A stretch of DNA of 64,000 nt from Bacilli bacterium (GTDB taxonomy: Bacteria > Bacillota_I > Bacilli_A > ML615J-28 > CAG-698), in NCBI GenBank assembly GCA_050953065.1, contig JBMNLZ010000002.1:192001-256000 (forward strand). The letters are read 5' to 3'. Shown here piece after piece: positions 30,908 through 50,442 of this stretch; positions within the stretch are counted from its first letter, which is position 1; every line of letters starts with the position of its first letter. Below the pieces are notes generated by a model, which was not told the DNA's origin, searched no databases, and saw only the letters and a program-made list of their open reading frames with translations. Both the position numbers and the translations under genes were made by a program.

Positions 30908-31984
30908 ATGAAAAAAATTTTTTATTTAATCTTCGTTTTAATTATTTTGTTAACTGGCTGTGGTTATACTGGTATTAGTTTGAACGATGTATCAATAGAT
31001 TTTACAGATTCTAATTCAGTAGTGGTATTAAAAAGGGAATATACTGAACGACAAATTATAAAAGTTTATGATGAAGAAGGTCAAGCTCTTCTTTTAATGA
31101 TACCTTATATGGATGAAGTTGCCGACCAATTAATGGCAAATAAGATAATAGAGTTGCCAGATGGAATAACTGATTTTAAGATTGTTGGCTTTTCTAACAA
31201 TCAATATAGTGGCAGTTCGGTTGATGTTCTTATTGAAACTAATGTCGGATATTATGCTATTGTTAAATTTGTATCAACTTTTGGTTTATATTTTAAATAT
31301 TATAAAATTGATGACGAATCAATTATTTATAGTAATATAAAAAATGTTATATATAAAGACCATACTACATCAGATAAATTAAAAATACATTGTAATAATG
31401 TAATCAAATATGCTTCAATAATAAATAAAGATGATAGTATTTATTTTATAAATGAGGAAAAAGAAACTCTATTATTTGAGAATAGTCAAATTAAGGATTC
31501 GTTTTTCTTGACTGCCTATGGTGAAAAACGATTAGATTATTATAATTTTATTATTATAAATCAAAATAATGAAATTAAATATTGTTCTATGTCGACAGAT
31601 CAAGAACTAGTTATAGACAAAGACATTATTGTAGAGGGTAAAATTATAAATTTTGGACCAATAGTAAATGGAGCGACTAAGATGTATACAGATACTAATA
31701 ATCCTTTTGAAAAGCAAATCATTACTGTAGAAAATCAAAAAGGTGAAATAATAGAAAAAGAAATAGTTGATTATTTCTATATACTTACAGATGAATATGT
31801 CTATGTTTATGATAAGTTAGGTGTAGAGTTTTATAAAGAAACAATAGAAGAGACAGTTTATGGAATAAATTTTATTAATTTCGGATATAAAGATAACGGC
31901 ATAGATTTGCAATTAGCTTATAAAACAAATGATAATTTATTTAGATGGAAAACAAAAACAATTGGAAAGGAAGAAAAAGAATGA
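30908..31984 (+). CDS. Uncharacterised beta-rich lipoprotein coupled to the downstream hydrolase
   Basis: Lipobox LTGC; AAGGAGG SD; ATGA overlap with next gene. Confidence 0.8.
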   Translation: MKKIFYLIFVLIILLTGCGYTGISLNDVSIDFTDSNSVVVLKREYTERQIIKVYDEEGQALLLMIPYMDEVADQLMANKIIELPDGITDFKIVGFSNNQYSGSSVDVLIETNVGYYAIVKFVSTFGLYFKYYKIDDESIIYSNIKNVIYKDHTTSDKLKIHCNNVIKYASIINKDDSIYFINEEKETLLFENSQIKDSFFLTAYGEKRLDYYNFIIINQNNEIKYCSMSTDQELVIDKDIIVEGKIINFGPIVNGATKMYTDTNNPFEKQIITVENQKGEIIEKEIVDYFYILTDEYVYVYDKLGVEFYKETIEETVYGINFINFGYKDNGIDLQLAYKTNDNLFRWKTKTIGKEEKE

Positions 31985-34900
31985 TTAAAAAAATATTTGT
32001 AAAAGGATTAATAATTTTAATGATGCTAATTTTAATAAATTTTAATGTTGAATTAAAAGCAGCTGGAAATGAGTTTGTAGGTCAAAGTGCTGGAATAACA
32101 GAACAAGATATAAAAAATGCAATAAAAATTACAGACAAAAACATTAATTATGAAACTAATATAACGTTTATTTCGCATGGTTTACAAGGTAGCGCAGCTC
32201 ACTGGAGCAATATAATGGAGATGTCTTCTGCCCTTAACAGTTATGAATTTCAATATAATCATAATTCGATTATTGAATGTTTAAGAAGGCGATGCAATGC
32301 AGATGTATATAAGATAGAAGACTTTAATACAAGTTATGTAATAGAAGATAATCAAATTGTTGGTGTAACACCACATTCATTTAAACTGAGAAAACTTATA
32401 GTTGACAGTGTTGAAAAAATTTATAAAGAAAATGAATATATAAATTCAATTACAAATATGAATAACCATATTGTTATAATTTATCAATCTTCTAATGAAA
32501 CAAATGATAAAATCTCTGATTTTGCGTATAAAGAATTGGAATTTGCAATAAACAAAATTACCTACGATGTTATACAATTAATGGAAACGAAAGTAAAAAT
32601 AAATTTAATTGGTCATAGCAGAGGGGGGATTTTAAATATGAAATATGCTATAGAATATCCTTATAATGTTGATGGTTTATTTAGTGTTGGTACCCCTTAT
32701 AACGGGACTAATTTGGCTAGCATATATAATTTGTTATCAAGTGCATTTCCTTCAAATTCGGGAGATCCGTTTGGATTAACAGATTTAATAAATTCACCTG
32801 GAGGAAGTGAAATTATAAGTATTAATCCTGAAAACAATCATTTAAAAACCGCTTGGTTGAATATGCATGAAGAATATTCACCAAACATCAATTTTCATGC
32901 AATTGCAGGTGAAACAGGTATAACACATTTGATTAAAGAATTAATAGATATTCAAAATATGGCTGGGGGGAATGCGACCTTAAGCGAAGTGGTTAATATA
33001 TTGTTTAGTGCTTTAATTGCGCTTGAACAAACATATATTAGTAATGGAATAACGCCTAATACTGATGAGAGTTCTCCTAATAGAAAACCGTATAATTCAC
33101 AAAATTTAAATTTAGAAGAGGAGCCATTGGTTAGTACGGCCGCTTTTATTTCGAGTGCACTTTTATGTTTTGGATTAAGTATAGAGAATGAGGATTATTT
33201 AGCTCTTAGTGAATTATTAATTAACTGCCGTTATTCATTCGCTGAAGGCGAGTTATTTTTAAGATCTGATTTATTTAGTCATACTTACTCACAACAGGCC
33301 GATGGCTTTGAATTTGGACTTAATGATAATATAATTTTAGTAAATAGATACAAAAAAATATTTACAGGAAATAATTCTACATATGAAATGAAAGCAGCTA
33401 ATTCTGTAGGAGTAGTTCATAATAGTGAGACAAAAGATTTAGAAATAATTAATTATATTTTATTAAATATTAATATATCTAGAAATGACAATAAAGTAAA
33501 TACTTGCTTTATTAATAAATACAATGATTCGTGCTTGGCATTTATGGGAGTTGTAATTAATAGCACTGAAAATAATGTTCATATTTCTTTGCCCAATATA
33601 ATAACTTACGATTTATATGGGGATGGAACATATATGATTCACAACGTAAAAGGCATTTCAAGATTTTTTTCTAAGAGTTTAAATAATGACAAGGTCACTC
33701 AAATTAGTTTTGGGAATAAAATAAGCATAATTGAGCAAGGGGCTTTTAATAGCTTTGATAATGTTATAGCATTTAATGTAGATGCAACGAGCGAATATTT
33801 TTGTAGTAATTCGGGTAGTTTGTATACTAAAAATAAAAAAAGTTTAATAAAGTATTGTAATGGTTCATCTTTCACAACAGCATTTATTTTGCCGAATGAA
33901 ACCACAAATATTGAGTCTTTTGCTTTTACAAATAATAATTTTTTAACAAGTGTAGACCTTAATAATGTAACAATGGTTGGAGAAAAGTGTTTTTATAATG
34001 CTTCTAATTTAGCTAGTATTGTCGGCAATCAATTGTGCTATGCTTATGATTTTGCATTCCATTATACTGAATGGCTTGACAATATAAGTAATACTGAATC
34101 AACAAATCTAGGCAAAGTATTAATAAAGTACATTGATAACTCACAACCAAAAAAAACTAAATTAGTGGTTAATCAATATTCTTGTGTATATTCATATGCT
34201 TTTTTGAATAGTGAAAATTTAGTAGAAATAATTTTCAACACTGAAGAGTTACTTGTGAATAGATATGCATTTGTAGATAATATTTCGTTAGAAAGAGTAA
34301 TGCTTTTAGTAGAACAAGTTTTTGTAATATGTCCATATTCTTTTGTTAATAATAACAATCAGTTTACGTGTTATTATTTAGAAAATGTATATATTAATGG
34401 ATTTGCAAATTTTAATATATATAGGAATCGAGGTTCTTGTGTTCCCATATCTAGATATGATTTGAATTGTAGAAGCGATGTAAATGATTTTAATAAAAAC
34501 TTGGGAAAAGGAATGTCATTAATCTATCAATTAGATGTTGATTGTGCAAAATCATATAAAATTACATCAAGTTCTACATCAGCATTTGAAATGAAAATAT
34601 ATGATCAAAATATGAATTTGATAAATGATATTGTCGCTACAATTTCAAATGATGAATTATCTGGAATAACGACTGGTACAATTACAAATTATTTAAGCCC
34701 AGGAAAATATTTTTTGAAAATAAAGTACAATGATAGTAGCAAAAGCGGAATTATAAAAACAAATTATAAAGCTACATGGCCAGTAAAAACTTACAATGTA
34801 CATTATAGCGATGTTGAAAATAAAAATAATATTTTAAATCATCTACATAAAATTTCTAAACCAATTAGTAATATTTACAAAAACGAATTAATATACGCTA

Positions 34901-36183
34901 ATTGTAAAGGCACAGGTTTTTATGAAATAAAACTTACCGGAATAAAAGAAGATGGAACTGTCATTAATTTCCCAGAAAAATCTATAAAAATATATAATAG
35001 TGCTGATAAGACCGAATTAATGCAAAAGTTTGCACTTGAAGAAAATCCATTGTTAGCAAAAAATGCATCCAATTCTAATACTGTGTATGTATATTTGACA
35101 AAAAATACAGGGTATTATATTGATATAGAATTGTATGATAAAGATTTTGTATCATTATATCTCGACATAACTTTGGCGAATATTCAAGAAATAGATATTT
35201 TTGATTTGAATAATTTAACTTCGAATGAAAATATAAATATAACAAATGAAAGTGATAAAAAGGGAGATTATGTAAAAAAAATAAAAATAAAACAAGCATG
35301 TCAAGTAAAGTTAGAAGTAGAATATGAGGGGTATCAGCATCAAAATGTAGTCATCATTCTAATGAAAATAGAATATGATAGTTTGTCAAATGAACAAACA
35401 ATAAATTTAAAATATATTGATTATCTTAATAAAGATAAAACTACGAATAATGCGAATAGCGGTGTGATTTTAGATTTAGAACCTGGAAATTATTATATTG
35501 GATACTTTAATTTGAGTAACGGCCAAATTACTATTATGAAACTAAAAAGAATTGTTAGCAATAATATTACTAATATCAATTGTGGACTACTCCCTGATCG
35601 TAGCATCCATTTCCCATATGGAAGTCAATTGTCAATTTTAGAAAAAGATGTGCCTCCTTTATACAAAAGTTATCAAGGGACTAATATTACCGTAGGTTTT
35701 ACAAGGTTAATATACTTGGACTTGGATTATGCACAATCTGATTCTAGATTAGATTATTATTGGTATTCAAGTGACAATGCTAAAGCTACTATAACAGCAT
35801 ATGCTACTATTCTTGGAAGAACTCCTGGTAATGTTACAATAATGGCGGTTTATAAAGAAGATCCATCTATCATATTTGTGAAGGAATTTACTATACAGCC
35901 AGATTTAGATAACACACCCCTAAATATAGAAATTTATCAAACCCATTCACTAAGTGAAGATGGTCCTTATCAAATAACCTTAACAGCTCAAAATAGTCCA
36001 TATGTATTTTTGCAATATTATAATTGGAGCGTTTATGTTCCGTGCCAAGAAAATGATTTTAGTGCATGGCTTGATGCTTGGGGGAATCTTGCTACTACAG
36101 GAACAGGACTTCTTTATATAACTGGTGGATATATAATTAATCCAAGGATTAGTATTACAATTTATCTGACCTTAATAGAATGA
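31981..36183 (+). CDS. Large secreted protein: lipase-like (PGAP1/DUF676-type) alpha/beta-hydrolase, BspA LRR, conserved Ig-like C-terminal scaffold
   Basis: Signal peptide ending LKA; SHGLQG, LIGHSRGG (GxSxG), VGTPYNGT; LRR units IESFAFTNN; C-terminal about 430 aa homologous to 46768-50442. Confidence 0.8.
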   Translation: MIKKIFVKGLIILMMLILINFNVELKAAGNEFVGQSAGITEQDIKNAIKITDKNINYETNITFISHGLQGSAAHWSNIMEMSSALNSYEFQYNHNSIIECLRRRCNADVYKIEDFNTSYVIEDNQIVGVTPHSFKLRKLIVDSVEKIYKENEYINSITNMNNHIVIIYQSSNETNDKISDFAYKELEFAINKITYDVIQLMETKVKINLIGHSRGGILNMKYAIEYPYNVDGLFSVGTPYNGTNLASIYNLLSSAFPSNSGDPFGLTDLINSPGGSEIISINPENNHLKTAWLNMHEEYSPNINFHAIAGETGITHLIKELIDIQNMAGGNATLSEVVNILFSALIALEQTYISNGITPNTDESSPNRKPYNSQNLNLEEEPLVSTAAFISSALLCFGLSIENEDYLALSELLINCRYSFAEGELFLRSDLFSHTYSQQADGFEFGLNDNIILVNRYKKIFTGNNSTYEMKAANSVGVVHNSETKDLEIINYILLNINISRNDNKVNTCFINKYNDSCLAFMGVVINSTENNVHISLPNIITYDLYGDGTYMIHNVKGISRFFSKSLNNDKVTQISFGNKISIIEQGAFNSFDNVIAFNVDATSEYFCSNSGSLYTKNKKSLIKYCNGSSFTTAFILPNETTNIESFAFTNNNFLTSVDLNNVTMVGEKCFYNASNLASIVGNQLCYAYDFAFHYTEWLDNISNTESTNLGKVLIKYIDNSQPKKTKLVVNQYSCVYSYAFLNSENLVEIIFNTEELLVNRYAFVDNISLERVMLLVEQVFVICPYSFVNNNNQFTCYYLENVYINGFANFNIYRNRGSCVPISRYDLNCRSDVNDFNKNLGKGMSLIYQLDVDCAKSYKITSSSTSAFEMKIYDQNMNLINDIVATISNDELSGITTGTITNYLSPGKYFLKIKYNDSSKSGIIKTNYKATWPVKTYNVHYSDVENKNNILNHLHKISKPISNIYKNELIYANCKGTGFYEIKLTGIKEDGTVINFPEKSIKIYNSADKTELMQKFALEENPLLAKNASNSNTVYVYLTKNTGYYIDIELYDKDFVSLYLDITLANIQEIDIFDLNNLTSNENINITNESDKKGDYVKKIKIKQACQVKLEVEYEGYQHQNVVIILMKIEYDSLSNEQTINLKYIDYLNKDKTTNNANSGVILDLEPGNYYIGYFNLSNGQITIMKLKRIVSNNITNINCGLLPDRSIHFPYGSQLSILEKDVPPLYKSYQGTNITVGFTRLIYLDLDYAQSDSRLDYYWYSSDNAKATITAYATILGRTPGNVTIMAVYKEDPSIIFVKEFTIQPDLDNTPLNIEIYQTHSLSEDGPYQITLTAQNSPYVFLQYYNWSVYVPCQENDFSAWLDAWGNLATTGTGLLYITGGYIINPRISITIYLTLIE

Positions 36184-36191
36184 TATATAAA

Positions 36192-36226
36192 AATACTCTA
36201 ATAATGAAAATTATTAGAGCATTTTT
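36192..36226 (+). terminator. Intrinsic terminator
   Basis: CTCTAATAAT-GAAA-ATTATTAGAG followed by T run. Confidence 0.75.
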
Positions 36227-36262
36227 ATATTTATAGAGTAATGTTAAAAAAATTAAAAACTC

Positions 36263-37264
36263 CTATTTTTTAATTCTATTAAAGCCCATTTTTTTATAAA
36301 CATCTTTGATTTTTCTTTCGGCTAATAGACTTGCTTGTCTATAACCTTCATCTAAGATATTGTCTAGTTCATTAGATTCTACTAAAGCATTATATCTGTT
36401 TTGAACTTTTTGGATTTCTTCAGCTACAATTTCAGCTAAATCTTTTTTAAAATCTCCATAGCCTTTACCTTCGTATTTTTTTTCAATTTCTTTAAAGCTT
36501 AATCCTGTAATAGTAGAATATATCATCATAAGGTTTGAAATTCCTGGTTTTAACTTTTTATCATACTTTACAATAGCTTCTGAATCAGTAACTGCACTTT
36601 TGATTTTCTTTTTAATACTTGAGATTGGTTCTAATAGATAAATACATCCTTTTTCATTTTCAGCTGATTTATCCATCTTTTTACTTGGATCTTGTAGGTC
36701 CATGATTCTAGCGCCTTTTTTACTGATAAGAGGTTCAGGGATTTTAAAAGTTTCTCCAAAGCGATTATTAAAGCGAACACCTAAATCTCTTGTTAGTTCT
36801 AGATGTTGTTTTTGATCATCTCCAACTGGAACAAAATCAGCATCATATAATAAGATATCAGCTGCCATTAAAGCAGGATAAGTGAAAAGGGCTGATGTTA
36901 CTCCTTGAGTTTGTTTGGCTTTTTTATCCTTATATTGTGTCATTCTTTCTAATTCACCCATATAGGCAATAGTTTGCATAATATAGGCAAGTTCAGCATG
37001 AGCTGGGATTTCAGATTGAATGTATAAAGCAAGGTTTTCAGTTGACAGTCCTGAAGCTAAAAAGATTGCTGCAACATTTTTAATGTTTTGGCGTAATTCT
37101 TTTGGATCTTGTGGGACAGTTATAGCGTGTAAGTCAGCCACAAAAACAAAGAATTTATAATCTGTCATTTCTTTTTGAAGGAGTGCGAAATTTCTAAAAG
37201 CTCCTAAATAATTTCCAAGAGTTGGTGTGCCACTTGGTTTTACACCTGATAATACGATTTTCAT
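36263..37264 (-). CDS. trpS: Tryptophan--tRNA ligase
   Basis: SGVKPSGTPTLGNYLGA, ADLHAIT, YPALMAADILLY, VPVGDDQKQHLE; KMSKS loop reads KMDKS. Confidence 0.97.
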   Translation of the reverse strand: MKIVLSGVKPSGTPTLGNYLGAFRNFALLQKEMTDYKFFVFVADLHAITVPQDPKELRQNIKNVAAIFLASGLSTENLALYIQSEIPAHAELAYIMQTIAYMGELERMTQYKDKKAKQTQGVTSALFTYPALMAADILLYDADFVPVGDDQKQHLELTRDLGVRFNNRFGETFKIPEPLISKKGARIMDLQDPSKKMDKSAENEKGCIYLLEPISSIKKKIKSAVTDSEAIVKYDKKLKPGISNLMMIYSTITGLSFKEIEKKYEGKGYGDFKKDLAEIVAEEIQKVQNRYNALVESNELDNILDEGYRQASLLAERKIKDVYKKMGFNRIKK

Positions 37265-37417
37265 ATGGTTCATATCAAGATAACTTGATATTCCTCCTTT
37301 CTTTTAGCCAATATGTATTATAAGCCTATTTTTTAAAAGTGTCAACTTCTTAAATTATTTCTCTTTACCCTTTAACTTTAGTATGCTATAATTTAAATAC
37401 AAGGGAAGGGTGGTTTT

Positions 37418-37888
37418 ATGATAAAGGTATATTCATCTCCAAGTTGTATTTCATGTAGAAAAGTTAAAAAATTTTTCAAATCATATAATATTCCTTTCAT
37501 TGAAAAAAACATTTTTAAAACTCCTATTTTAAAAGAAGAGATTTTTAAAATGTTAACAATGAGTGAGAATGGTTTTGATGATATCATTTCTAGAAGATCA
37601 CGTGTCTTTCAAGAAACAAAAGTTGATTTAGAAAAAATGAAAACTAAGGAATTAGTTGATTTTATTATTGAAAATCCTAGTGTCTTAAAACGTCCGATTA
37701 TTGTTAGTGAACTTGATTTACAAGTAGGTTATAACAATGAAGATATTGAAGTCTTTCTTCCAGAAGAAGTTAGAAATAGAGAATGTTTTGAATGTTATGG
37801 TAAGAATGTAGATTGTCCTTATGTAAAAGCAATTAGGTTTGAAGATAAGGAAAAAAAAGAAAAAGATAATTGTCCATTTAAGGTATAA
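37418..37888 (+). CDS. spx: Spx/MgsR-family regulator with Cys-rich C-terminal extension
   Basis: SPSCISCRK, ENGFDDIISRRS, LKRPII, LQVGYN. Confidence 0.88.
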   Translation: MIKVYSSPSCISCRKVKKFFKSYNIPFIEKNIFKTPILKEEIFKMLTMSENGFDDIISRRSRVFQETKVDLEKMKTKELVDFIIENPSVLKRPIIVSELDLQVGYNNEDIEVFLPEEVRNRECFECYGKNVDCPYVKAIRFEDKEKKEKDNCPFKV

Positions 37889-37891
37889 AAG

Positions 37892-37919
37892 AAAAATCGA
37901 CTAGATAGTCGATTTTTTT
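37892..37919. terminator. Bidirectional terminator
   Basis: AAAAATCGACTA-GA-TAGTCGATTTTT. Confidence 0.85.
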
Positions 37920-38490
37920 AATAAAGTCTTTTATAAGCATTCATAGCTCTTTTAATTTTCTTTTCTGCTTTTTTATATTGAATTGCTAGTTCAGAAATTA
38001 TTGCTATAAATTCTTTTTTTCCTTCATGATATGATGTTGCAACATATTCTAATTCATAATCAATTTCACCTAGATATGTACTTTCATCAATGAATAATAC
38101 GCCATTACTATATGGTAAATACATTCTCTTAGTTGAAAGACTTAAATAGTTATGAACTAATTGATCTTGAATAATTGAAGTAGTTTCAACTTTAATTTTT
38201 TCTTTTTCAATTACACCAGTTTCTTTTAAGACAGCAAATTCTTCTTGAGTAATCTCTTCTTTGAATTCGTGAATAGCATAACCTTTTTTCTTTTTTAAAG
38301 TTAGTTCAAGAGTATCATCTCTTTCTTTTACTCTTAAAGAAGCATCAACTGCTTTAAGAGAAAATCTTTTAGTATCAAAATAATGATTTGTTTGAAAGTC
38401 ATATTTATTACCATCAAACATTTCAATTAACTTATCATATTCTTCTTTAGTAAGTAGTGTTTTAAATTCAGCTTCTGTACCTTTATTCAT
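37918..38490 (-). CDS. CYTH-domain protein (YjbK-like)
   Basis: EAEFK, QTNHYFDT, LRVKE, ELTLK, DYELE; synteny with spx and nadK. Confidence 0.88.
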   Translation of the reverse strand: MNKGTEAEFKTLLTKEEYDKLIEMFDGNKYDFQTNHYFDTKRFSLKAVDASLRVKERDDTLELTLKKKKGYAIHEFKEEITQEEFAVLKETGVIEKEKIKVETTSIIQDQLVHNYLSLSTKRMYLPYSNGVLFIDESTYLGEIDYELEYVATSYHEGKKEFIAIISELAIQYKKAEKKIKRAMNAYKRLY

Positions 38491-38659
38491 GTTGTCCTCC
38501 TATAAAAGATAATATCTATTAAAAAGTTATTTATATTATACATAATATAATATAAAAATCAAGGGTTAAATAATATAGACTTAAAATAGATTAAAAAAAA
38601 TTTAAATTTAGATTAAATATATGTTATAATGTGTGTATATAATAATAGGAGTGTTAGTT

Positions 38660-39421: not shown

Positions 39422-39429
39422 AAAAAAGA

Positions 39430-39456
39430 ATACTTCCCCATAAAGGGGAAGTAATT
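39430..39456. terminator. Bidirectional terminator
   Basis: TACTTCCCC-ATAAA-GGGGAAGTA between convergent nadK and clpP. Confidence 0.85.
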
Positions 39457-40044: not shown

Positions 40045-40175
40045 AATTTAAGCCTCCTATATATATTGTAATTTTACTATTTAGAGATAAAAAAGTCAAA
40101 TGATATTAAAAATAACTGAAGAAAAAAAATAAAATAAACTTGCATTTTAAAAGCTAAATAGTTATAATGGTATAA

Positions 40176-40405: not shown

Positions 40406-40425
40406 ATATAAAGGAGAAATAAAAA

Positions 40426-41448: not shown

Positions 41449-41459
41449 GAGGTAGCATC

Positions 41460-43847
41460 ATGAAAGTAAAATTAGAATGGTTAAATGAATTAGTAGATTT
41501 ATCTGATTTATCATTACAAGAAATAATAGATACAATTTCACTTAATTGTATAGAAATTGAAACAGTGTTACCATTATCTAGTGCGACTAATTTAGTAACT
41601 GGATATGTTTTAGAAAAAGAAGCTCATCCTAATTCTGATCACTTATCAGTATGTAAAGTAGATGTTGGATGTAACACACTACAAATTGTTTGTGGTGCTC
41701 CAAATGTAGAAAAGGGTCAAACAGTAATTGTTGCTTTGGTTGGAGCAGTTTTACCAGGAGATTTTAAAATTACAAAAGCTAAAATCAGAGGTGTAGAATC
41801 AAGTGGAATGATTTGTTCGCTTCAAGAATTAGGATTTGAAAAGAAATATATTCAAGAAAAATATCAAGAAGGAATTTATTATTTTACTGAAGAAGTTGAA
41901 ATTGGGATTAATGCTTTAGAAGCATTAAAGATGGATGATGTAGTAATTGAATTAGGTCTTACTCCAAATAGGAGTGATTTATTAAGTATGATTGGAGTTG
42001 CATATGATGTAAGTGCAGCTTTTAATAGACCAAGGAAAGAATTAAAATATGATTTAAAAAAATCAAATATTACTGAGACAGTAGATGTTACTATTAAAAC
42101 AAAAGATTGTAGCGCATATTATGCCATTATAGCAAAAGATTTAGTAATTAAAGATTCACCTCAATGGTTAGTATCAAGACTAGTTGCTTTTGGAGCAAGA
42201 CCAATTAATAATGTTGTTGATATTACAAACTATATTCTAGCTCTTTTTGGTCAACCTTTACATGCTTTTGATTATCAAAAGTTAGGTAATAAAATTGTAG
42301 TAAGAAACGCATTAAAGAAAGAAAAAATTACAACACTTGATTTAGAAGAAAGAGTTTTAGAAGAAGATGATATTTTAATTACTGATGGTAAAAAAGGCGT
42401 TGCTCTAGGTGGAGTAATGGGTGGAATAGACACTGCAATTTCTAATGATACTAAAGATATTGTAATTGAAGCGGCTGTCTTTAATCCTGCTTCTATTAGA
42501 AAAACATCAACTAGATTAGATTTAAGAAGTGAATCTTCAATTAGATTTGAAAAAGGTGTTGACGTTAATAGAACTCTAGAAGCTTTAAATTATACTTGTT
42601 ATTTACTTGAAACTTTAGCTGATGCTAAGATTTCAAAAGAATATAAAGTAGCTGGAATTACAGAAGTAGTGGATCTACCAATCTCAATTACTCTTGATTA
42701 TATTAATAAATATTTAGGACTTGATTTAACTATTAAAGAAGTAATTAATATCTTTAAAGCATTAGAATTTAAAACTGCTTTAGAGTCAAGTAATGAATTA
42801 GTAGTTTATGTTCCAAACAGAAGAAGTGATATTACAATTAAAGCTGATTTAGTAGAAGAGATTGGAAGATTTTATGGTTATGAAAAACTACCTAATACTT
42901 TACCTAAATCAAACCTTACTTCAACTCTAACTCCAAAACAAAAAAATACTAGAAAATTAAAAGATATTCTAGTAGGTTTAGGATTAAATGAAGTAATTAA
43001 TTATTCGCTTGTTTCAAAAGAAAAGAATCAAATGTTTACATTAAACAATAAAGAAAAGATTAAAGAAATATCTTTAGTAATGCCATTAAGTGAAGAACAT
43101 AAATATTTAAGACTTAATCTACTTTCTGGTTTAATTGAAAATGTAAAATATAACTTTGCTCGTGATTTAAAAGATTTAGCTTTATTTGAAGTAGGTAAAA
43201 CTTATTATGAAAAGGATGGCAAAACTTTTGAAGATACGTATTTAGGAATTGCAATTTCTAATTCATTCTTTTCAAATGCTTGGCAAAAAACAAATATTCA
43301 AGCTGACTTTTATTTACTAAAAGGTATTCTAGAACAAATCCTATCAAAATTTGATTTAAACTTTGACCTAAGACCTTTAGAAAAAGTGATAGCAGAAATG
43401 CATCCAAAAAGAAGTGCTAGAATTGTAGTAAATGGAAAACCAATTGGCTTCTTAGGAGCACTTCATCCTGAGTTTGCTTTAAAGAATGATTTAAATAATG
43501 TTTATGTTTTAGAAATGGATTTAGAAGATTTTATTAATACTAAAGAAGAAATAAATCTTTATAAACCAATTACTAAAATTCCAAGCATGGAACGAGATAT
43601 TGCAGTAGTAGTTAATAAAAATGTTTTAGCAGGAGATTTAATTAAATCAATTAAACAAGAAGCTAAAGATTTAATTAGTAGTATTGATATTTTTGACGTT
43701 TATGAAATAAACGAAAAAGAAAAATCAATTGCGATTAAAATGATTTTTACATCTTTTGAAACCCTAACTGATGATATTGTAAACAAAAAGATTGCTAGAA
43801 TATTAAAGAAGTTAAATGAAGAATATAATGCAGTCTTAAGAAGTTAA
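41460..43847 (+). CDS. pheT: Phenylalanine--tRNA ligase beta subunit
   Basis: IVCGAPN, TPNRSD, NNVVDITNY, RFEKGVD, DLVEEIGRFYGY. Confidence 0.98.
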   Translation: MKVKLEWLNELVDLSDLSLQEIIDTISLNCIEIETVLPLSSATNLVTGYVLEKEAHPNSDHLSVCKVDVGCNTLQIVCGAPNVEKGQTVIVALVGAVLPGDFKITKAKIRGVESSGMICSLQELGFEKKYIQEKYQEGIYYFTEEVEIGINALEALKMDDVVIELGLTPNRSDLLSMIGVAYDVSAAFNRPRKELKYDLKKSNITETVDVTIKTKDCSAYYAIIAKDLVIKDSPQWLVSRLVAFGARPINNVVDITNYILALFGQPLHAFDYQKLGNKIVVRNALKKEKITTLDLEERVLEEDDILITDGKKGVALGGVMGGIDTAISNDTKDIVIEAAVFNPASIRKTSTRLDLRSESSIRFEKGVDVNRTLEALNYTCYLLETLADAKISKEYKVAGITEVVDLPISITLDYINKYLGLDLTIKEVINIFKALEFKTALESSNELVVYVPNRRSDITIKADLVEEIGRFYGYEKLPNTLPKSNLTSTLTPKQKNTRKLKDILVGLGLNEVINYSLVSKEKNQMFTLNNKEKIKEISLVMPLSEEHKYLRLNLLSGLIENVKYNFARDLKDLALFEVGKTYYEKDGKTFEDTYLGIAISNSFFSNAWQKTNIQADFYLLKGILEQILSKFDLNFDLRPLEKVIAEMHPKRSARIVVNGKPIGFLGALHPEFALKNDLNNVYVLEMDLEDFINTKEEINLYKPITKIPSMERDIAVVVNKNVLAGDLIKSIKQEAKDLISSIDIFDVYEINEKEKSIAIKMIFTSFETLTDDIVNKKIARILKKLNEEYNAVLRS

Positions 43848-43988
43848 AAAATGTTTGATTTAAAAAAACTTTGTTTTATGTTGAACTTATAAAATATGAT
43901 TTAACTGAATTTGATTATATAATTTATTCTTTGTAGGATTGTAAATGATGTGAGACATAACATAATAATTAAAAAAGAGGTAAGGAAA

Positions 43989-44741
43989 ATGAAGAAAGCG
44001 AGTACTAAGTTATTACGAGTATTAATTGTTTGTTTTTTATTGTTGTTGATGTCTGGGTGTCGATATCGATATGATCCTTATAAGGACAAAGTAAATGTAG
44101 TTGTTGAAACGGATTATTTTTATGTTCAGTTAATAGTAAAAAATGTAAAAGAACCAAGGGCTTGTATATTAGAATTAACTGATTTAGGGAAAGAACAAGA
44201 AATTTTAGTTATTCCAGAATATGTAGAAGGGCTTCCTGTAAGGACTATTGGTAGACAAGAATTTAGTACATTTGGATGGAGAATTATAAGTGATAATTTA
44301 AAGAAAGTTTATGTTCCTATAACTGTAACCTCCATTTTAAGTACTGCATTTTTAGATTGCACTAATTTAGAAGAACTTGTGATGTTATCAGTGCCTATTA
44401 ATTATAATATGCCTGATCTTTGGTCTACTGGTGGACAAGCAACAATTATTCTTTCTAATCCATTGCAAGAAAATAGACTTATTGCAGTCCTAAAACCAGA
44501 AAATATAACATTACCAGTAAATCTAGTTTTTTACTATAACTATTCTGATGCACCAAATTCTGGATATTATTGGTTTGATTATATAACTGGTAGTAATTTA
44601 TATGTTTTACCAAACAATCCCGAAAGAGAAGGATATACTTTTAAAGGATGGTATATAGATGAAGAATGTAGTATAGAGTGGGATAAAGTATTACCAACAT
44701 CAGAAACTGAAATACTTGAATTATATGCTTTATGGGAATAA
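43989..44741 (+). CDS. Lipoprotein with BspA LRR-like segment and InlB B-repeat (copy 1)
   Basis: Lipobox MSGC; IPEYVEGLPVRTIG, AFLDCTNL, PEREGYTFKGWY...LYALW. Confidence 0.85.
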   Translation: MKKASTKLLRVLIVCFLLLLMSGCRYRYDPYKDKVNVVVETDYFYVQLIVKNVKEPRACILELTDLGKEQEILVIPEYVEGLPVRTIGRQEFSTFGWRIISDNLKKVYVPITVTSILSTAFLDCTNLEELVMLSVPINYNMPDLWSTGGQATIILSNPLQENRLIAVLKPENITLPVNLVFYYNYSDAPNSGYYWFDYITGSNLYVLPNNPEREGYTFKGWYIDEECSIEWDKVLPTSETEILELYALWE

Positions 44742-45488
44742 AAAAATGAGTGTAAAATTATTTAAAATTTTTGTTATGATTTGTTTATTGTTGTTGATGT
44801 CTGGGTGTCGATATCGATATGATCCTTATAAGGACAAAGTAAATGTAGTTGTTGAAACGGATTATTTTTATGTTCAGTTAATAGTAAAAAATGTAAAAGA
44901 ACCAAGGGCTTGTATATTAGAATTAACTGATTTAGGGAAAGAACAAGAAATTTTAGTTATTCCAGAATATGTAGAAGGGCTTCCTGTAAGGACTATTGGT
45001 AGACAAGAATTTAGTACATTTGGATGGAGAATTATAAGTGATAATTTAAAGAAAGTTTATGTTCCTATAACTGTAACCTCCATTTTAAGTACTGCATTTT
45101 TAGATTGCACTAATTTAGAAGAACTTGTTGAATTATCAGTGCCTATTAATTATGATATTCCTGATCTTTGGTCTACTGGTGGACAAGCAACAATTATTTT
45201 TTCTAATCCATTGATGGAAAATAAAATTATTGCTCGTCAAAGATCTGGTGGAATACAAATACCAGTAAATTTAGTTTTTTACTATAACTATACTGATGCA
45301 CCAAATTCAGGATATTATTGGTTTGATTGTATAACTGGTAGTAATTTATATGTTTTACCAAACAACCCTGAAAGAGAAGGATATACTTTTAAAGGATGGT
45401 ATATAGATGAAGAATGTAGTATAGAGTGGGATGAAGTATTACCAACATCTGAGACTGAAATACTTGAATTATATGCTTTATGGGAATA
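44036..45488 (+). repeat. Tandem gene duplication, period 748 bp
   Basis: 44036-44380 appears identical to 44784-45128 by eye; differences cluster downstream. Confidence 0.93.
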
Positions 45489-45489
45489 G
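44746..45489 (+). CDS. Lipoprotein with BspA LRR-like segment and InlB B-repeat (copy 2)
   Basis: Tandem paralog at 748-bp period with the same motifs. Confidence 0.85.
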   Translation: MSVKLFKIFVMICLLLLMSGCRYRYDPYKDKVNVVVETDYFYVQLIVKNVKEPRACILELTDLGKEQEILVIPEYVEGLPVRTIGRQEFSTFGWRIISDNLKKVYVPITVTSILSTAFLDCTNLEELVELSVPINYDIPDLWSTGGQATIIFSNPLMENKIIARQRSGGIQIPVNLVFYYNYTDAPNSGYYWFDCITGSNLYVLPNNPEREGYTFKGWYIDEECSIEWDEVLPTSETEILELYALWE

Positions 45490-45875
45490 AAGGAAAGATG
45501 TAGTAGAGAAAGCATTTGATAATATGAAGAATGATTTAGACTTTAGAAGATTAAGAATTCATAATGAAAACACGTTAAGAGGTAAAATGTTTATAGTGTT
45601 TATTGCTTTAATATTAAAAACATATTTATATAATATGGTAATACAAAGAGGAATAGTAAAAGAATATTCAATTAATGAAGTACTAAAAGAAGTACAAAAA
45701 ATATCTAGAATTGAATTTGATAAAAACAACTCATTGTTAACGGAGATATCAAGCGAGCAAAGAAAATTATTTAGATTATTAGAAATAACAGAACCAAAAG
45801 AGAAAGAATGTACCCTAATGTAGGGGGTACATTCTTTATTGTTTATACGTGTATAATTCTTATAGGGAATTTAGG
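45487..45875 (+). mobile_element. IS1634-family transposase 3' remnant with probable right end
   Basis: RRKDVVEKAFDNMKNDLDFRRLRIHNENTLRGKMFIVFIALIL; GGGAATTTAGG at 45865-45875 resembles a terminal IR. Confidence 0.75.
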
Positions 45876-45987
45876 TTGATAATACGATTATACATTAATT
45901 ATGGCAAATAACAATACTATTTTGAACGGTATATGTTGACTGGGATATTTTTAAATGTTAAAATATTGGTGTAGGGGGTAAATAAAA

Positions 45988-46755
45988 ATGCGAAAATTAT
46001 TATTTTTTTTGATAACATTTATTTTGGGATTAAGTCTTGTAGGGTGCGACGACGAAATAAATGCGATTGAGAAAGTGAAAGTCCAAGCAAGACAAACTTA
46101 TTTGAACACAATCATTAAACCTCGGTATCCCGATGCTACAATAGCCGATGTGTCATTCAGACCTTTTCTTGGGGTTTATAGCAATAGCTTGGTAGCCATT
46201 TTCTATGGTGGACAGTATCACGGTAGTCAAATAGCAGTTGAGGTAACTGAGGAAATTGAGAATATAATTTTTGCATATTCCAGCGGATATCCAATCCTTG
46301 TTTGGAACGACGGGAAAATAAGTTCGCTAACGGCGGCATACGAGCAAGGGCTTTTAACAAAAGAAAATTTGACAACCATACACAATCTTTATTGCGATAT
46401 AGATGATGGAGTGGAGGTCGAAATGGAAATACAGTCAAGGCTAACTTATTTGAACACAATCGTTAAACCTCGGTATCCCGATGCTACAATAGCCGATGTG
46501 TCATTCAGACCGTTTCTTGGGGTTTATAACAACAGCTTGGTAGCCGTTTTTTATGGCGGGCAGTATCACGGTCCTCACATAGAACGTGAGGTAACTGAGG
46601 AAATTGAGAATATAATTTTTGCATATTCTAGCGGATATCCAATCCTTGTTTGGAACGACGGGGAAATAAGTTCGCTAACGGCGGCATACGAGCAAGGGCT
46701 TTTAACAAAAGAAAATTTGACAACTATACACAATCTTTATATAGGTAAAAAGTAA
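45988..46755 (+). CDS. Lipoprotein of two near-identical domains (116-aa period); putative partner/inhibitor of the downstream protease
   Basis: Lipobox LVGC; repeat 46095-46392 vs 46443-46740. Confidence 0.85.
   Translation: MRKLLFFLITFILGLSLVGCDDEINAIEKVKVQARQTYLNTIIKPRYPDATIADVSFRPFLGVYSNSLVAIFYGGQYHGSQIAVEVTEEIENIIFAYSSGYPILVWNDGKISSLTAAYEQGLLTKENLTTIHNLYCDIDDGVEVEMEIQSRLTYLNTIVKPRYPDATIADVSFRPFLGVYNNSLVAVFYGGQYHGPHIEREVTEEIENIIFAYSSGYPILVWNDGEISSLTAAYEQGLLTKENLTTIHNLYIGKK
46095..46740 (+). repeat. Intragenic direct repeat, period 348 bp
   Basis: AACTTATTTGAACACAATC...CACAATCTTTAT occurs twice. Confidence 0.95.
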
Positions 46756-46767
46756 AAGGAGAAAATC

Positions 46768-49700
46768 ATGTTTAATACTAACAAAGTAAAGAAAGTATCG
46801 CGATTTAGTGCATTATCAATTATAATATCAATCCTAATATTGGGATTAATAGTATCATTTACTTTCATGAACTGCAATACTATCTACGTATTTGCTGCTG
46901 AAGGCGAACAAACCGTGTCGATGACAAAAGTTTACAGCGACGTGTCAATTGAAGAGGATTTTGATGGCAGTAGCATTATTGTTATTATTGACAATAGTCT
47001 AAGTGGGATAAACAAGCGCCATGATGTAAATTTTTTTGAAGGAATTGAAATAGTCGAAATCGAAGACTTAACCGTAAAAACAGAGAGTGCAAGAAGTCTC
47101 GTTGACAAGAAAACTTTCGAGCAGGTCTTGAAGATAAAGTTACCGCAAGATTGTAAAGAAAGTGTCATACGCGGTATTAAGCAATTAGAAAGCATAAACG
47201 GAATTAAGTATGCTGGACCCAATAGGTATATTGAAGTGGAGAGGAATCCTAATGACCCGTTTTTTACCCATGTTTCCGGCGGTGAGGCGAATCAATGGGG
47301 GCTTAATAGAATTCAAGCAAATTTAGCTTGGGATTTGACAACGGGCAATAATAACGTGCGTGTCGGGATAATCGATACGGGAATTGGTGATATTGTCGGC
47401 GGACAAGCTAATCATCCTGACTTAAATGCAAACTTAGTTGCAGGTGGAGATTTTGTTAACATGAACGGAACTACGCCGGGGCCGTTAAGAGCAGATACTG
47501 ATGGACACGGAACTCACGTTGCTGGAATTGTAGGAGGGGTTGGCAATAATAGTGTGGGAATCTCTGGCGTTAATTGGAACGTTTCATTAGTGCCGATGCA
47601 AGTCGCAACAGGTGATACAATCGACGCCGCGGCTTGCGTAAGAGCAATAAATTTTGCAACAAACACTTGGAATAACGAAAATAGAATTAGTATTTTGAGT
47701 ATGAGTATCGGTCGATATACTGAGTGGCCAGAAATAGAAACTGCGATTAGAGCGTACCCTGGACTTTTTGTTTGCTCCACAGGAAACAGAAAACAGAACA
47801 ATGATATCACTCACCATTATCCCTCTTTTTATGGTTCCGCTTTGCACACAAATCCGCTTACAAATATGATTTCAGTAGGCAGAAGTGACATTAACGATGA
47901 GCGTCCTACAGATTTGAATATCAATGCAAATTGGGGAGCGCAAACGATTACTCTTTTTGCACCAGGTCAAAACATCATTAGTACATACCCCGTTAGCGTG
48001 ACATCAAATTGGACTCCTGGATATCACAGAACATCAGGCAGCTCAATGGCAGCGCCTATGGTTTCGGGGGTAGCGGCTTTATTGTTATCAGTTAATGCAA
48101 ATCTTACAACTACTCAATTAAGAGCGGCAATCGTCAACAACGTGGATGTGTTGGACACTTTTGAAAACGACCCAACAAACGGACGTCAATGCGTAACAGG
48201 TGGACGGCTTAATGCATACAAGGCACTTAGTAGCGTAATTTTTACAACAAGTAACGTTAGTAATGGCATATCAATAAACGGTTTTATAAACGGATACACT
48301 ATGCCAAACAACACAGAATTAGTTTTACCAGATAGCTTTGCACCATTAGGAGATGAAGAACAACAACCTGTTGTTGCAATTGGGAATAATGCTTTTGCTA
48401 ATCAAACAAGCCTAACTGAAATCTCTATTCCTAGCAGTATTACAAGTATTGGAGCAAATGCCTTTGCTGGTTGTACTTCATTAAACAGTGTAATAAGAGA
48501 ATTTAATTATGATATTACTACCACTAATTGCTATTACTTAATAAGAGAAAATTTAAATAATAATTTTCTTGAAGTGAACGGAGAAACTGTCTCAAATACA
48601 AATGATATAGTTCCTTTGTACTTAAGTGCAGGCAATCATAGTATTAAAGTACAAGGGTCAAATATTTCAAGTGTTATGAGTGCTCCAACTTTAGAGAAAG
48701 TAGAACAGATTTTTCTAAACTCAAATCAAGATGTTAAAAGTAGCATTGAAAGTGGAAAAAATATTTTTCATTTTAATAATTTTGGTGGAAGGTTTGTTCG
48801 ATTTACTATAGAAGCAACTAGTAGTAATCCTAACAATCCAACTATTAGTTATTTAGAAAATGCAATAATAGTTAGAGACTCAAATGGTGTGATAAAAAAA
48901 TTTGAAAATTCTATTTTTTCTATAGAAGCAAGAAATGTTACTGATTCAAATACAATAACAGTTTATCTTCCTACAACTAAAACTTATTATGTAGAAGTAA
49001 ACTTTTCAACTACGGATATTTCCGAATTAACATTGACTGCTAGATTATTAGATAATGCATCTCAATTTAATTTATTTAATTTAAATGAAAATGCTAATTC
49101 TAACATTAATTTGTTTAACATTGGCACATCAAATGGTGATGAAATTAAGGTAATTAATATATTGCAATCAGGACAATTTAAATTTGTAGTTAATTGTGAT
49201 AATCGAACAACTAGTTCAAAATTTGTAATTATTAAAGAAAAGTTAGTTGATAATCAAATAGTTAGACAGGTTATAAATGTGTGGAATATGGATATGGATG
49301 AAAATGGGAATGGTGAAATAGTTGATTTAGAACCTGCTAAATATTATATGGGATATTTTAATACACCGGTAGGGGTAGATGTTACTATTCTAATCAATAG
49401 ACTTGTTACACAAAGCGGAAGTGATGTATTGGTAACCGATCCAGATTATATGACACCTTGTGGAAGTCAAATCAATATAATTGAAGCAGATAAAAACATA
49501 AAAAGTTATCGTCAAACATTTATAACAGAGGGATTTACAAGATTAGTATATTTTGATATAGATTATGCTCCTTCTATTTCTAGATTAGATTATTATTGGT
49601 ATTCAAGCAATTCAAGTGTAGCAACAGTTACCCCATATGGAACTGTTTTAGCATTGCCAGTAACAACAGCTACTACAGTAAAAATAATGGCTGTATTTAA

Positions 49701-50442
49701 AACAGATTGTTCAAAAGTTTTCATTAAGGAATTTACTATTTTAGATGATATAGGATTGTCATGTGAATATGATAATAGAGAAGAAATGGTAAATGATTTT
49801 CTAGATGATTATACAGCATTTTACAATGCTGCTAACAATACAAGTTTATCTAGAGTAACCTTACTTATTCCAGGAGATTCTGGCTATGATGCTAGTACGG
49901 CATTAGTGGCTAGATTAGATAATCAAAATGCTACTTTAGAATTATTTTATAACAACCTTGATTTATACAATAAGTGGATTTGGATTGTTGACTATACAAT
50001 GGAAATACGCCCTTCAAGTCAAACTGAGTTTCAAAAATATATAAACAATACAGCAACTGGAACAAGTACAATTGTAAAATATGAAATATGGGCTTTCTTA
50101 AGTAAAAGAGTAAAAACAACGTGGCCACAAACTAGTGACTATACAATAGATGAAAACGCAAATGGTTTTTGGAGTTTAATAAATGGTGAATCTATAACTA
50201 TAGATATTAATGTTACAATTCCAGCTGGTCAAACAGTTATGATTCCTTTAATAGATGCAGAAGTACCTATTAATATATTGCAATATTATTTGTGGTCTAC
50301 AGAAAATCCAGAATCCGTAACATTTGCAGATTGGGGAAAAGTATATATTAGTTCTTCGGCAATTGGACAAACGGTTGTACTTAATGGAAGTTATATTCTT
50401 AACCCTAGGGTAGTAGTTAAGATTACTGTACAAGTAGAATAA
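46768..50442 (+). CDS. Large secreted S8 subtilase with short BspA LRR and conserved Ig-like C-terminal scaffold
   Basis: Signal peptide ending VFA; triad VGIIDTG, GHGTHVAG, SGSSMAAPMVSG; GGRLNA; IGNNAFANQTSL; C-terminus homologous to 31981-36183. Confidence 0.92.
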   Translation: MFNTNKVKKVSRFSALSIIISILILGLIVSFTFMNCNTIYVFAAEGEQTVSMTKVYSDVSIEEDFDGSSIIVIIDNSLSGINKRHDVNFFEGIEIVEIEDLTVKTESARSLVDKKTFEQVLKIKLPQDCKESVIRGIKQLESINGIKYAGPNRYIEVERNPNDPFFTHVSGGEANQWGLNRIQANLAWDLTTGNNNVRVGIIDTGIGDIVGGQANHPDLNANLVAGGDFVNMNGTTPGPLRADTDGHGTHVAGIVGGVGNNSVGISGVNWNVSLVPMQVATGDTIDAAACVRAINFATNTWNNENRISILSMSIGRYTEWPEIETAIRAYPGLFVCSTGNRKQNNDITHHYPSFYGSALHTNPLTNMISVGRSDINDERPTDLNINANWGAQTITLFAPGQNIISTYPVSVTSNWTPGYHRTSGSSMAAPMVSGVAALLLSVNANLTTTQLRAAIVNNVDVLDTFENDPTNGRQCVTGGRLNAYKALSSVIFTTSNVSNGISINGFINGYTMPNNTELVLPDSFAPLGDEEQQPVVAIGNNAFANQTSLTEISIPSSITSIGANAFAGCTSLNSVIREFNYDITTTNCYYLIRENLNNNFLEVNGETVSNTNDIVPLYLSAGNHSIKVQGSNISSVMSAPTLEKVEQIFLNSNQDVKSSIESGKNIFHFNNFGGRFVRFTIEATSSNPNNPTISYLENAIIVRDSNGVIKKFENSIFSIEARNVTDSNTITVYLPTTKTYYVEVNFSTTDISELTLTARLLDNASQFNLFNLNENANSNINLFNIGTSNGDEIKVINILQSGQFKFVVNCDNRTTSSKFVIIKEKLVDNQIVRQVINVWNMDMDENGNGEIVDLEPAKYYMGYFNTPVGVDVTILINRLVTQSGSDVLVTDPDYMTPCGSQINIIEADKNIKSYRQTFITEGFTRLVYFDIDYAPSISRLDYYWYSSNSSVATVTPYGTVLALPVTTATTVKIMAVFKTDCSKVFIKEFTILDDIGLSCEYDNREEMVNDFLDDYTAFYNAANNTSLSRVTLLIPGDSGYDASTALVARLDNQNATLELFYNNLDLYNKWIWIVDYTMEIRPSSQTEFQKYINNTATGTSTIVKYEIWAFLSKRVKTTWPQTSDYTIDENANGFWSLINGESITIDINVTIPAGQTVMIPLIDAEVPINILQYYLWSTENPESVTFADWGKVYISSSAIGQTVVLNGSYILNPRVVVKITVQVE

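Follow-up and report, generated by a model that had tools for sequence, protein, structure and literature searches.

We analysed a 64,000-nucleotide (nt) stretch of a Bacilli bacterium genome (assembly GCA_050953065.1, contig JBMNLZ010000002.1, positions 192,001 to 256,000; hereafter the window), in which a first-pass annotation had pointed out two gene islets, each with a lipoprotein gene directly upstream of a gene for a large secreted enzyme. Our results demonstrate that the exchangeable unit in this gene family is the lipoprotein together with the N-terminal enzymatic head of the large protein, carried on a constant C-terminal module, and that the upstream lipoprotein belongs to the head and not to the module. 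We favour, with moderate confidence, the explanation that the lipoproteins are membrane-tethered cognate inhibitors of their own enzymes, comparable to the potempins of Tannerella forsythia; in a predicted complex, one of them, lipoB, occupies the active site of the S8 subtilase head of its neighbour, bigB.

Both islets are surrounded by housekeeping genes. Islet 1 runs tyrS, lipoA-bigA and then trpS on the opposite strand; islet 2 runs pheS-pheT, lipoC1, lipoC2, a transposase fragment, lipoB-bigB and then ispH on the opposite strand. Open reading frames (ORFs) were called with genetic code table 11, and a table 4 reading of the region was dropped because spurious ORFs were its only addition. 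The two lipoprotein/enzyme pairs and their parts are as follows (lengths in amino acids, aa; LRR, leucine-rich repeat).

30908..31984, forward strand: lipoA, 358-aa lipoprotein with lipobox LLTGC, upstream partner of bigA.
31981..36183, forward strand: bigA, secreted protein with a lipase-like alpha/beta-hydrolase head, LRR and middle domains and the C-terminal module.
To about 33660, forward strand: bigA head, lipase-like alpha/beta-hydrolase.
33661-34899, forward strand: BspA-type LRR and middle domains of bigA.
34900-36183, forward strand: C-terminal module of bigA, common with bigB.
45988..46755, forward strand: lipoB, 255-aa lipoprotein with lipobox LVGC and two tandem alpha+beta domains of about 105 aa.
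46768..50442, forward strand: bigB, 1224 aa, secreted pre-pro S8 subtilase head, a last LRR piece, a middle domain and the C-terminal module.
48781-50442, forward strand: C-terminal module of bigB, with an insert of about 160 aa at about 49753-50240.

The common layout and the close spacing that had been claimed for the two islets held up with these ORFs. The lipoA stop codon overlaps the likely bigA start as ATGA (31981-31984), and GGAAAGGAAG lies just 5' of that start as a purine-rich ribosome-binding site; the longest bigA ORF begins at 31945, 5' of the likely start at 31981. lipoB ends 12 nt before bigB, and the spacer carries AAGGAG, again a ribosome-binding site. As the annotation had stated, the pairs are otherwise unrelated: lipoA and lipoB resemble each other in their signal peptides alone, their mature parts being unrelated, and the similarity of the bigA and bigB heads is no better than chance.

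The C-terminal regions of bigA and bigB are clearly homologous (BLASTP: 36% identity over 333 aa, residues 993-1321 of bigA and 679-995 of bigB, E = 9e-48), and their last 66 aa also match (E = 1e-4). Between these two blocks bigB has about 160 extra residues, and the shared region therefore measures 427 aa in bigA and 553 aa in bigB. The motif blocks quoted in the first-pass annotation all lie inside the aligned region. Searching 1.84 billion representatives with the 427-aa module returned 312 proteins at E ≤ 1e-3 and 111 at ≤ 1e-30. The profile is covered to its end in 188 of 196 database proteins that were examined, and in 180 of these 188 the module ends at most 10 residues from the C-terminus. 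In a profile search of 300 genomes of the class, 25 had the module, every one of them belonging to one of two families within the window's order (f1, 9 of 16 genomes; f2, 15 of 18), and it was absent from the 265 genomes of 27 other families. A genome may hold up to about 10 copies; the window's own genome encodes a third module protein outside the window.

The model of the bigA module (pLDDT 89.3, pTM 0.84; per-residue and global confidence, respectively) is all-beta, with four beta-sandwich domains. Residues 93-219 fold as a jelly roll similar to the receptor-binding domain of Clostridium perfringens enterotoxin (Z 9.8, root-mean-square deviation 3.1, 110 aligned) and also resemble HA70 domain 3 and the PPC/collagen-binding domains of collagenases. 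Residues 220-335 correspond to a Big_2 immunoglobulin (Ig)-like domain and residues 336-427 to another Ig-like domain, of the kind present in LigA and S-layer proteins. Fold comparisons revealed no enzymatic, translocation or secretion-system feature in the module, which is most likely a binding or display stalk, judging from these models. A single constant terminal module on many paralogues with different functional domains is familiar from the cargo of the type IX secretion system (T9SS), with its C-terminal domain (CTD), and from the CWB2 proteins of Clostridioides difficile, where the modules bind the secretion machine or a wall polymer; the present host, unlike those, apparently has no wall. 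Three variants of the module proteins were also noted. The 535-aa proteins at L091, L092 and L094 have the second half of the module only, and their genes directly follow a two-gene unit including a 913-931-aa ABC-type ATPase/permease-like protein. At L064, L086 and L089, proteins of about 730 aa bear the full module in their N-terminal half, and two of the three genes have a lipoprotein-like gene directly downstream (overlap of -1, or a 21-nt gap). At L042, L048, L062 and L090, the big gene is split into a signal-peptide N-terminal piece and a main ORF, for which a frameshift, a pseudogene or faulty assembly may be responsible.

The members of the family consist of a cleavable signal peptide, an exchangeable head, in most cases BspA-type LRRs, and the constant module. 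The bigB head is a Peptidase_S8 domain (Pfam E = 5.8e-42; LRR_5 is also present in bigB) with the catalytic triad and oxyanion residues D203, H247, N340 and S426, of which H247, N340 and S426 are invariant in 26 sequences and D203 lies in GIIDTG. The bigA head is borderline in Pfam, with DUF676 at 21.4 bits against a cut-off of 20.3 and Abhydrolase_1 below its cut-off; LRR_5 in bigA scores 27.5 bits against 27.7, and Big_2 is weak. The head has a GHSRGG nucleophile elbow, and S213, D430, H480 and an HG motif are invariant in four such heads. Among solved sequences, the head comes closest to family I lipases of Burkholderia and Pseudomonas, with a match of 47 aa round the nucleophile (E = 7e-4 to 4e-3). 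Across the family, Pfam names S8, M64, trypsin-like, Abhydrolase_1 and C92 heads, with weak matches to C39/C10 and M10, and leaves several heads unnamed. A scan of 48 of the 133 full-length database members (precomputed Pfam was taken for 60) yielded 15 S8, one M64, one C92 and one DUF6973 head, and 30 proteins without a catalytic family.

Heads and modules have been shuffled against each other. On a quick tree of 36 modules, the head labels need 24 changes, compared with a minimum of 11 and a shuffled mean of 26.5. The seven S8-headed rows need seven changes, and near-identical modules bear different heads. A separate observation concerns an unnamed head type with an N-terminus like AH..NLGI.G.D.ITYD.C (L069, L071-L074 and L100), the only type that clusters on this tree. 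It has no upstream lipoprotein; instead, a gene for a sigma factor of the extracytoplasmic function (ECF) type and a 272-399-aa gene, possibly for an anti-sigma factor, lie directly upstream.

The breakpoints of several exchanges could be mapped. In two loci of different genera, L041 and L065, one single block of 2387 nt is 92% identical; it opens just behind the signal peptide of the lipoprotein and closes 37 nt short of the module, and the modules themselves show 34% identity. At L060 and L063, the flanks agree to 94-95%, the left one ending 35-109 nt ahead of the lipoprotein gene and the right one beginning in the LRR. The cassettes enclosed by them are unrelated: one locus encodes a 236-aa lipoprotein and a trypsin-like head, the other a 113-aa lipoprotein and an S8 head. 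These flanks, 2.4 and 3.4 kb long, are this similar though the two genomes (G037 and G021) are assigned to f2 and f1, which suggests a recent whole-locus transfer or a binning problem. Within one genome, two paralogues are 94% identical from the LRR onward and carry different heads. In another paralogue pair, 7 kb apart, the modules are 93% identical, the heads unrelated and the lipoproteins 42% identical. Several relatives have nearly identical signal peptides on unrelated mature lipoproteins, and such alike signal peptides could supply the left-hand homology for exchange.

Islet 2 of the window itself is such a mosaic. The further features there are these.

43950..44741, forward strand: lipoC1, lipoprotein in which a BspA-type LRR piece is combined with a Listeria-Bacteroides repeat (InlB-B).
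44716..45489, forward strand: lipoC2, tandem duplicate of lipoC1 with 89% aa identity.
45431..45823, forward strand: fragment of an IS1634-family transposase, the C-terminal end of the transposase model.
About 46000..48450, forward strand: GC-rich, apparently foreign cassette of mature lipoB and the signal, propeptide and S8 domain of bigB, to about aa 535-560.

lipoB and bigB up to about aa 535-560 have a GC content of 0.39-0.41 (lipoB alone 0.387) and a third-position GC content (GC3) of 0.35, compared with 0.28-0.30 and a GC3 of 0.12 in the rest of bigB. Measured per 200 nt, the cassette has 0.36-0.465 and its flanks 0.22-0.30; the window as a whole has 0.283. Between aa 535 and 1224, bigB matches L067, from a genome of the same genus, with 59% identity over 700 aa, the 160-aa insert included, and L067 has a hydrolase head and a lipoC-type lipoprotein upstream. 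The GC block and the homology to L067 from aa 535 onward therefore indicate that lipoB and the S8 head are foreign and are joined to a resident LRR and module. lipoC1 and lipoC2, whose reading frames overlap by 26 nt, are 63% identical to the lipoprotein directly upstream of this hydrolase-headed orthologue. From the sequence, the locus thus reads as one in which an exchange replaced a hydrolase head by lipoB and the S8 head, the duplicated old lipoproteins and the IS1634-family remnant being left upstream. Between lipoC1 and lipoC2, the synonymous divergence (dS) is 0.12 and the ratio of nonsynonymous to synonymous divergence (dN/dS) is 0.57, a value compatible with stranded copies that are needed or not needed.

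The transposase fragment matches positions 379-482 of the 483 of the NCBIfam IS1634-family model (E = 3e-20, below the cut-off), with a weak Pfam DDE match. Contigs of three metagenome runs diverge at a repeat boundary at about 45875-45880, and depth spikes at 45648-45878, so the remnant is the end of a multi-copy element. Promoter and terminator scans gave nothing above shuffled sequence; a hairpin at 45803-45837 and a TTGACT-17-TAAAAT site at 45936-45964 are consensus matches only. In three other studies, contigs run through the GC block's two edges and through the junction between lipoB and bigB; the window mosaic is therefore not an assembly artefact of this genome. The stretch 45700-48700 is present in runs of 16 studies, mostly of anaerobic digesters, sludge and bioreactors, gaps in the contig cover carrying no meaning; contigs of one RNA library lie on lipoC, lipoB and bigB, a matter of contig placement and no proof of transcription.

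We then turned to the linkage of lipoproteins and big genes. In 25 of the 38 loci that could be assessed, and probably in 2 more, the gene immediately before the big gene is a lipobox gene on the same strand (gap -40 to +77 nt), by a manual reading of the neighbourhood table in which 3 of the 25 precede the N-terminal fragment of a split gene. In most loci, stop and start overlap or the spacer is at most 34 nt. As a background, 27 of 1328 genes (2.0%) in the window's own genome have such a neighbour by a lipobox test that is a crude pattern, and all three module genes do. Almost no lipoprotein of the loci is named by Pfam or NCBIfam, and searches of the Protein Data Bank (PDB) with the L063 lipoprotein and the so-called IDF-type lipoprotein gave nothing meaningful. 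lipoA belongs to an orphan family with one homologue at 64% identity; it matched no Pfam or NCBIfam family and is possibly beta-propeller-like, a lead from an Atlas search in which all leads scored below 0.9.

To compare heads with lipoproteins, 34 lipoprotein/head pairs were clustered, 30 of which remained after heads above 80% identity were merged. Seventeen of the 20 pairs that share a lipoprotein cluster also share a head cluster (shuffled mean 1.8; 0 of 5000 shuffles reach 17). The concordant sets unite lipoC-type lipoproteins with hydrolase heads (L067, L079, L099 and L106) and lipoB-type lipoproteins with bigB-like S8 heads (the window, L111 and L113, also L109); further families accompany M64 heads, an unnamed 'H' head and, in two cases, other unnamed heads. 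Pairs persist even at 25-33% identity. In three of nine metagenome loci, a lipoB-type lipoprotein directly precedes a bigB-like pre-pro-S8 gene (41-52% identity to bigB); in a fourth it precedes a lipoC-type gene and a hydrolase-headed protein, and the other five have no such neighbour or a contig too short to judge. The proposal of the first-pass annotation, a lipoprotein plus head swapped on a constant module, is thus supported by four mosaics, by the near-random head labels on the module tree and by this co-variation, and heads of at least five enzyme families occur, not the one or two fixed heads that would have refuted it.

Docking of the lipoproteins onto the constant module was considered and rejected, since the lipoproteins track the heads across module swaps and differ between paralogues with 93%-identical modules. 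A different gene order was observed at L070 (G009), where an S8-headed member immediately follows pheT, at the chromosomal site that the bigB islet has in the window, and a 400-aa lipoB-type lipoprotein is encoded downstream instead of upstream, with a 4-nt overlap.

We next predicted the structure of lipoB and of its complex with the S8 head. The lipoB model (pLDDT 88.2) shows two helix-plus-sheet domains, corresponding to two copies of a domain of about 105 aa that also occurs in 32 other lipoproteins. No solved chain matched lipoB in a PDB sequence search, a Foldseek search with the model found nothing at E ≤ 1e-3, and an Atlas search gave leads only, all below 0.9. A fold search (VIA wide) returned weak matches to cystatin-fold peptidase inhibitors (Z 3.2-4.3). 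The complex of bigB aa 160-500 with lipoB aa 21-255 scored 0.79 (0.78-0.81 between runs), whereas the best of three controls scored 0.00. Of 80 solved complexes, 58 attain such a score, and of 110 mismatched pairs 2 do, counts that hold only roughly here because custom alignments were used. Between runs, at least 87% of the contacts agree, and the partner pLDDT is at least 82. On the S8 side, the predicted interface comprises residues 203-204, 245, 247-248, 280-290, 313-320, 337-342, 384-386 and 422-427, taking in D203, H247, N340, S426 and the substrate-binding strands. On the lipoB side, it comprises residues 189-201 and 212-217, with the YGGQYHG loop (aa 194-201), the most conserved motif of the family. 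The predicted pose is that of a substrate-like inhibitor. An inhibitor- or immunity-like role, also proposed at the outset, is thereby supported for lipoB and the S8 head, by this model.

The setting of these genes gives such a role a plausible purpose. The genome is 1.55 Mb long, has about 28% GC and is 94% complete; no penicillin-binding protein (PBP) transpeptidase and no sortase were found in it, and its one Mur-ligase-like gene, beside valS, is presumably folC, judging from its position. Uncultured reduced Bacilli include lineages for which peptidoglycan deficiency has been predicted (PMC10868615). The host is probably wall-less, with an exposed membrane, and a producer that secretes proteases and lipases over a bare membrane must therefore protect its own surface. 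In the explanation that we favour, the small lipoprotein encoded by the translationally coupled gene before each head would block the catalytic site of the enzyme with which it is encoded, close to the exposed membrane of the producer. Cassettes of lipoprotein and head are swapped by recombination, with the right-hand crossover in the conserved LRR or module and the left-hand crossover at or upstream of the lipoprotein signal-peptide region, while the module would act as a binding or display stalk. By extension, lipoA, lipoC and the other lipoprotein families would protect the producer from their own heads in the same way.

The closest known counterpart is found in T. forsythia, which secretes six peptidases of different classes with a near-identical C-terminal domain (PMC9890683, PMC4404884). 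According to PMC9890683, the gene of each of these KLIKK peptidases follows, with an overlap or a gap of no more than 5 bp, that of a co-transcribed potempin, an outer-membrane lipoprotein 98-132 residues long, which inhibits its own peptidase by a loop inserted into the cleft and thereby shields the producer's surface; mature potempins are 4-14% identical and their signal peptides 65% identical. The arrangement has been published as unique to this one periodontal pathogen, and the limited literature that we searched contains no description of the present family. We read the present family as an analogue, not a homologue, of the KLIKK-peptidase/potempin system, apparently alike in function in every respect testable here. 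In both systems, the lipoprotein ORF lies immediately upstream (the ATGA overlap of lipoA and bigA, the 12 nt between lipoB and bigB, 25 of 38 loci); peptidases of different classes have a common C-terminal extension (module identity 36% in the window and up to 93% between paralogues); mature lipoproteins are unrelated and signal peptides alike, as seen here in relatives; orphan lipoproteins carry the same signal peptide; and a loop enters the active-site cleft, here for lipoB and S8 in the model. The differences are considerable. The present hosts are wall-less Bacilli and not diderms with type IX secretion, and the extension is a 427-aa four-domain module ending in TLIE (bigA) or VQVE (bigB), with no Pfam Por_Secre_tail match, in contrast to a T9SS CTD ending in KLIKK. 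lipoB is a 255-aa tandem alpha+beta protein, unlike the 98-132-aa beta-barrels (OB or eight-stranded) of potempins. Lipase-like hydrolases are among the heads here, members are known from two bacterial families and number up to about 10 per genome, cassette exchange is documented, and inhibition is predicted from a model.

Several observations weigh against cognate inhibition. Of the 38 assessable loci, 11 have no upstream lipoprotein, some having an ECF sigma/anti-sigma pair and others a downstream lipoprotein. The IDF type is not head-specific: the heads behind it are trypsin-like, S8 or unnamed. lipoB-type genes are also met in second place upstream of an M64 pair and of unnamed heads, and at least three unrelated lipoprotein types are found among S8 heads. 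bigA's lipoA differs from the lipoC type that accompanies other hydrolase heads, and lipoC, made of LRR and InlB-B repeats, looks like a general binding scaffold and is of no known inhibitor type. Co-variation is partly expected because neighbouring genes are inherited together, and three pairs (L106, L111 and L113) were found through their similarity to lipoB. As for the structures, all fold matches of lipoB are under the caution level of the tool, and the best, at Z 5.2, is a dimerisation domain. The cleft pose may partly reflect bias, because subtilase-inhibitor complexes are common among solved structures, and the predicted inhibition comes from one modelled pair, lipoB and bigB.

An unlikely alternative is that the lipoprotein is an acylated, head-specific anchor or assembly partner, which would hold and stabilise the mature enzyme on the wall-less membrane once the enzyme has lost its own signal peptide. 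It has a precedent in the prcB-prcA-prtP operon of Treponema denticola, where PrcB, a 23-kDa lipoprotein encoded by the first gene, is needed for PrtP protein and interacts with this subtilase, its acyl group being proposed to anchor the dentilisin complex (PMC8167434). As in dentilisin, a small lineage-specific lipoprotein is encoded first, beside a subtilase, and the big proteins have signal-peptidase-type sites in a genome without sortase or PBP. The protein-binding repeats of lipoC would suit an anchor, and binding as such, which the complex model shows, is needed by an anchor too. However, the modelled contact is the catalytic cleft, with D203, H247, N340 and S426, where an anchor would block the enzyme. 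A single anchor for the constant module would also have been simpler, yet the lipoproteins track the heads, and bigB reaches only 76.8 bits against the NCBIfam PrtP equivalog cut-off of 300. The dentilisin operon also differs from the present family in that PrcB is described as a stabiliser or anchor and not as an inhibitor, and in that it lacks a family of exchangeable heads.

We consider it rather improbable that the family is, as the first-pass annotation proposed, an inverted polymorphic effector-immunity system, in which the heads would be weapons against (wall-less) neighbours, the lipoproteins immunity proteins that guard against kin as well, and the module a delivery or targeting part. 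A pairing of this kind exists in the type VI secretion system (T6SS), where a Tle lipase is paired with a Tli lipoprotein that neutralises it at the producer's envelope; unlike Tle, the present enzymes are Sec-secreted multidomain proteins. Polymorphic toxins have a constant N-terminal trafficking part, a variable C-terminal toxin and a downstream immunity gene, and the survey in PMC3482391 lists a single lipoprotein immunity family, Imm65. As in polymorphic toxins, cassettes are recombined here onto a constant part, between conserved flanks and across genera too, and the proposed cognate protective gene adjoins the variable part. The lipoC1 and lipoC2 genes, intact and duplicated after the head replacement, recall orphan immunity genes (dN/dS 0.39-0.57), the hosts live in dense communities (the 16 studies named above), and KLIKK peptidases are described as also aimed at bacterial competitors (PMC9890683). 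However, no result here points to toxicity for bacteria, and the polarity is reversed, with a variable N-terminus and a partner gene upstream, in place of the downstream immunity gene described in PMC3482391. The heads are ordinary digestive or host-directed hydrolase families with their own propeptide, no toxin or trafficking domain being seen, and S8, M64 and like heads are plausibly nutritional in genomes of 1-2 Mb. The module, finally, resembles binding or stalk domains, without a translocation or secretion-system feature. We see an outside chance for a bolder proposal: an order-wide recombining armoury of genome-reduced, wall-less Bacilli in which dozens of cassettes of tethered inhibitor and hydrolase are shuffled within and between genera onto an adhesive stalk, with orphan lipoC1 and lipoC2 as immunity genes against enzymes that neighbours go on producing, amounting to inverted effector-immunity for competition or predation in crowded anaerobic communities. 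If this were true, several inhibitor folds would be new to science.

It is very unlikely that the lipoprotein is a membrane-tethered steric chaperone, at least for lipase-like heads, in the manner of the Lif/LipH foldases. Family I.1/I.2 lipases need a cognate membrane-anchored foldase (PMC13381987, PMC12096544), the bigA head has family I lipases as its nearest solved sequences, and lipoC-type lipoproteins accompany hydrolase heads in four loci. That similarity is short and weak, however; Pfam and NCBIfam family searches detected no likeness of lipoA or lipoC to Lif, the S8 head brings a propeptide of its own, which is what usually helps subtilases to fold, and the sole modelled pair shows an active-site plug. 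Least probable of all, and hardly credible, is that common lipoprotein genes merely hitch-hike with the 5' end of big genes in surface-protein islands without direct interaction: a lipobox is found in 113 of 1330 ORFs (8.5%) of the own genome, adjacent genes travel together and some lipoprotein families occur with several head types, but an upstream lipoprotein in 25-27 of 38 loci against 2%, overlaps or spacers of at most 34 nt in most loci, pairs kept at only 25-33% identity, the lipoB-S8 pair recurring in unrelated contigs and a complex score of 0.79 against 0.00 all argue against it.

The islets stand in a genome rich in surface proteins. Dozens of secreted proteins or lipoproteins of 800-3100 aa are encoded, many in tandem arrays, and downstream of islet 2 lies a large lipoprotein gene (57695-61132, 1145 aa), one of the paralogous lipoproteins of about 1100-1200 aa found across the genome.

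If the lipoproteins are indeed cognate inhibitors, the potempin logic would have arisen independently in a distant lineage with an exposed membrane, and a lipid-anchored plug shipped with a secreted hydrolase may be a general answer to the problem of secreting aggressive enzymes without self-digestion. The many unclassified lipoprotein families would then be candidates for new inhibitors of peptidases, and perhaps of lipases. The loci also provide a clear natural case of the exchange of a domain together with its partner, with mapped breakpoints. Overall, the family opens a way to study the cell surface of Tenericutes-like bacteria, as yet uncultured, from digesters and guts.

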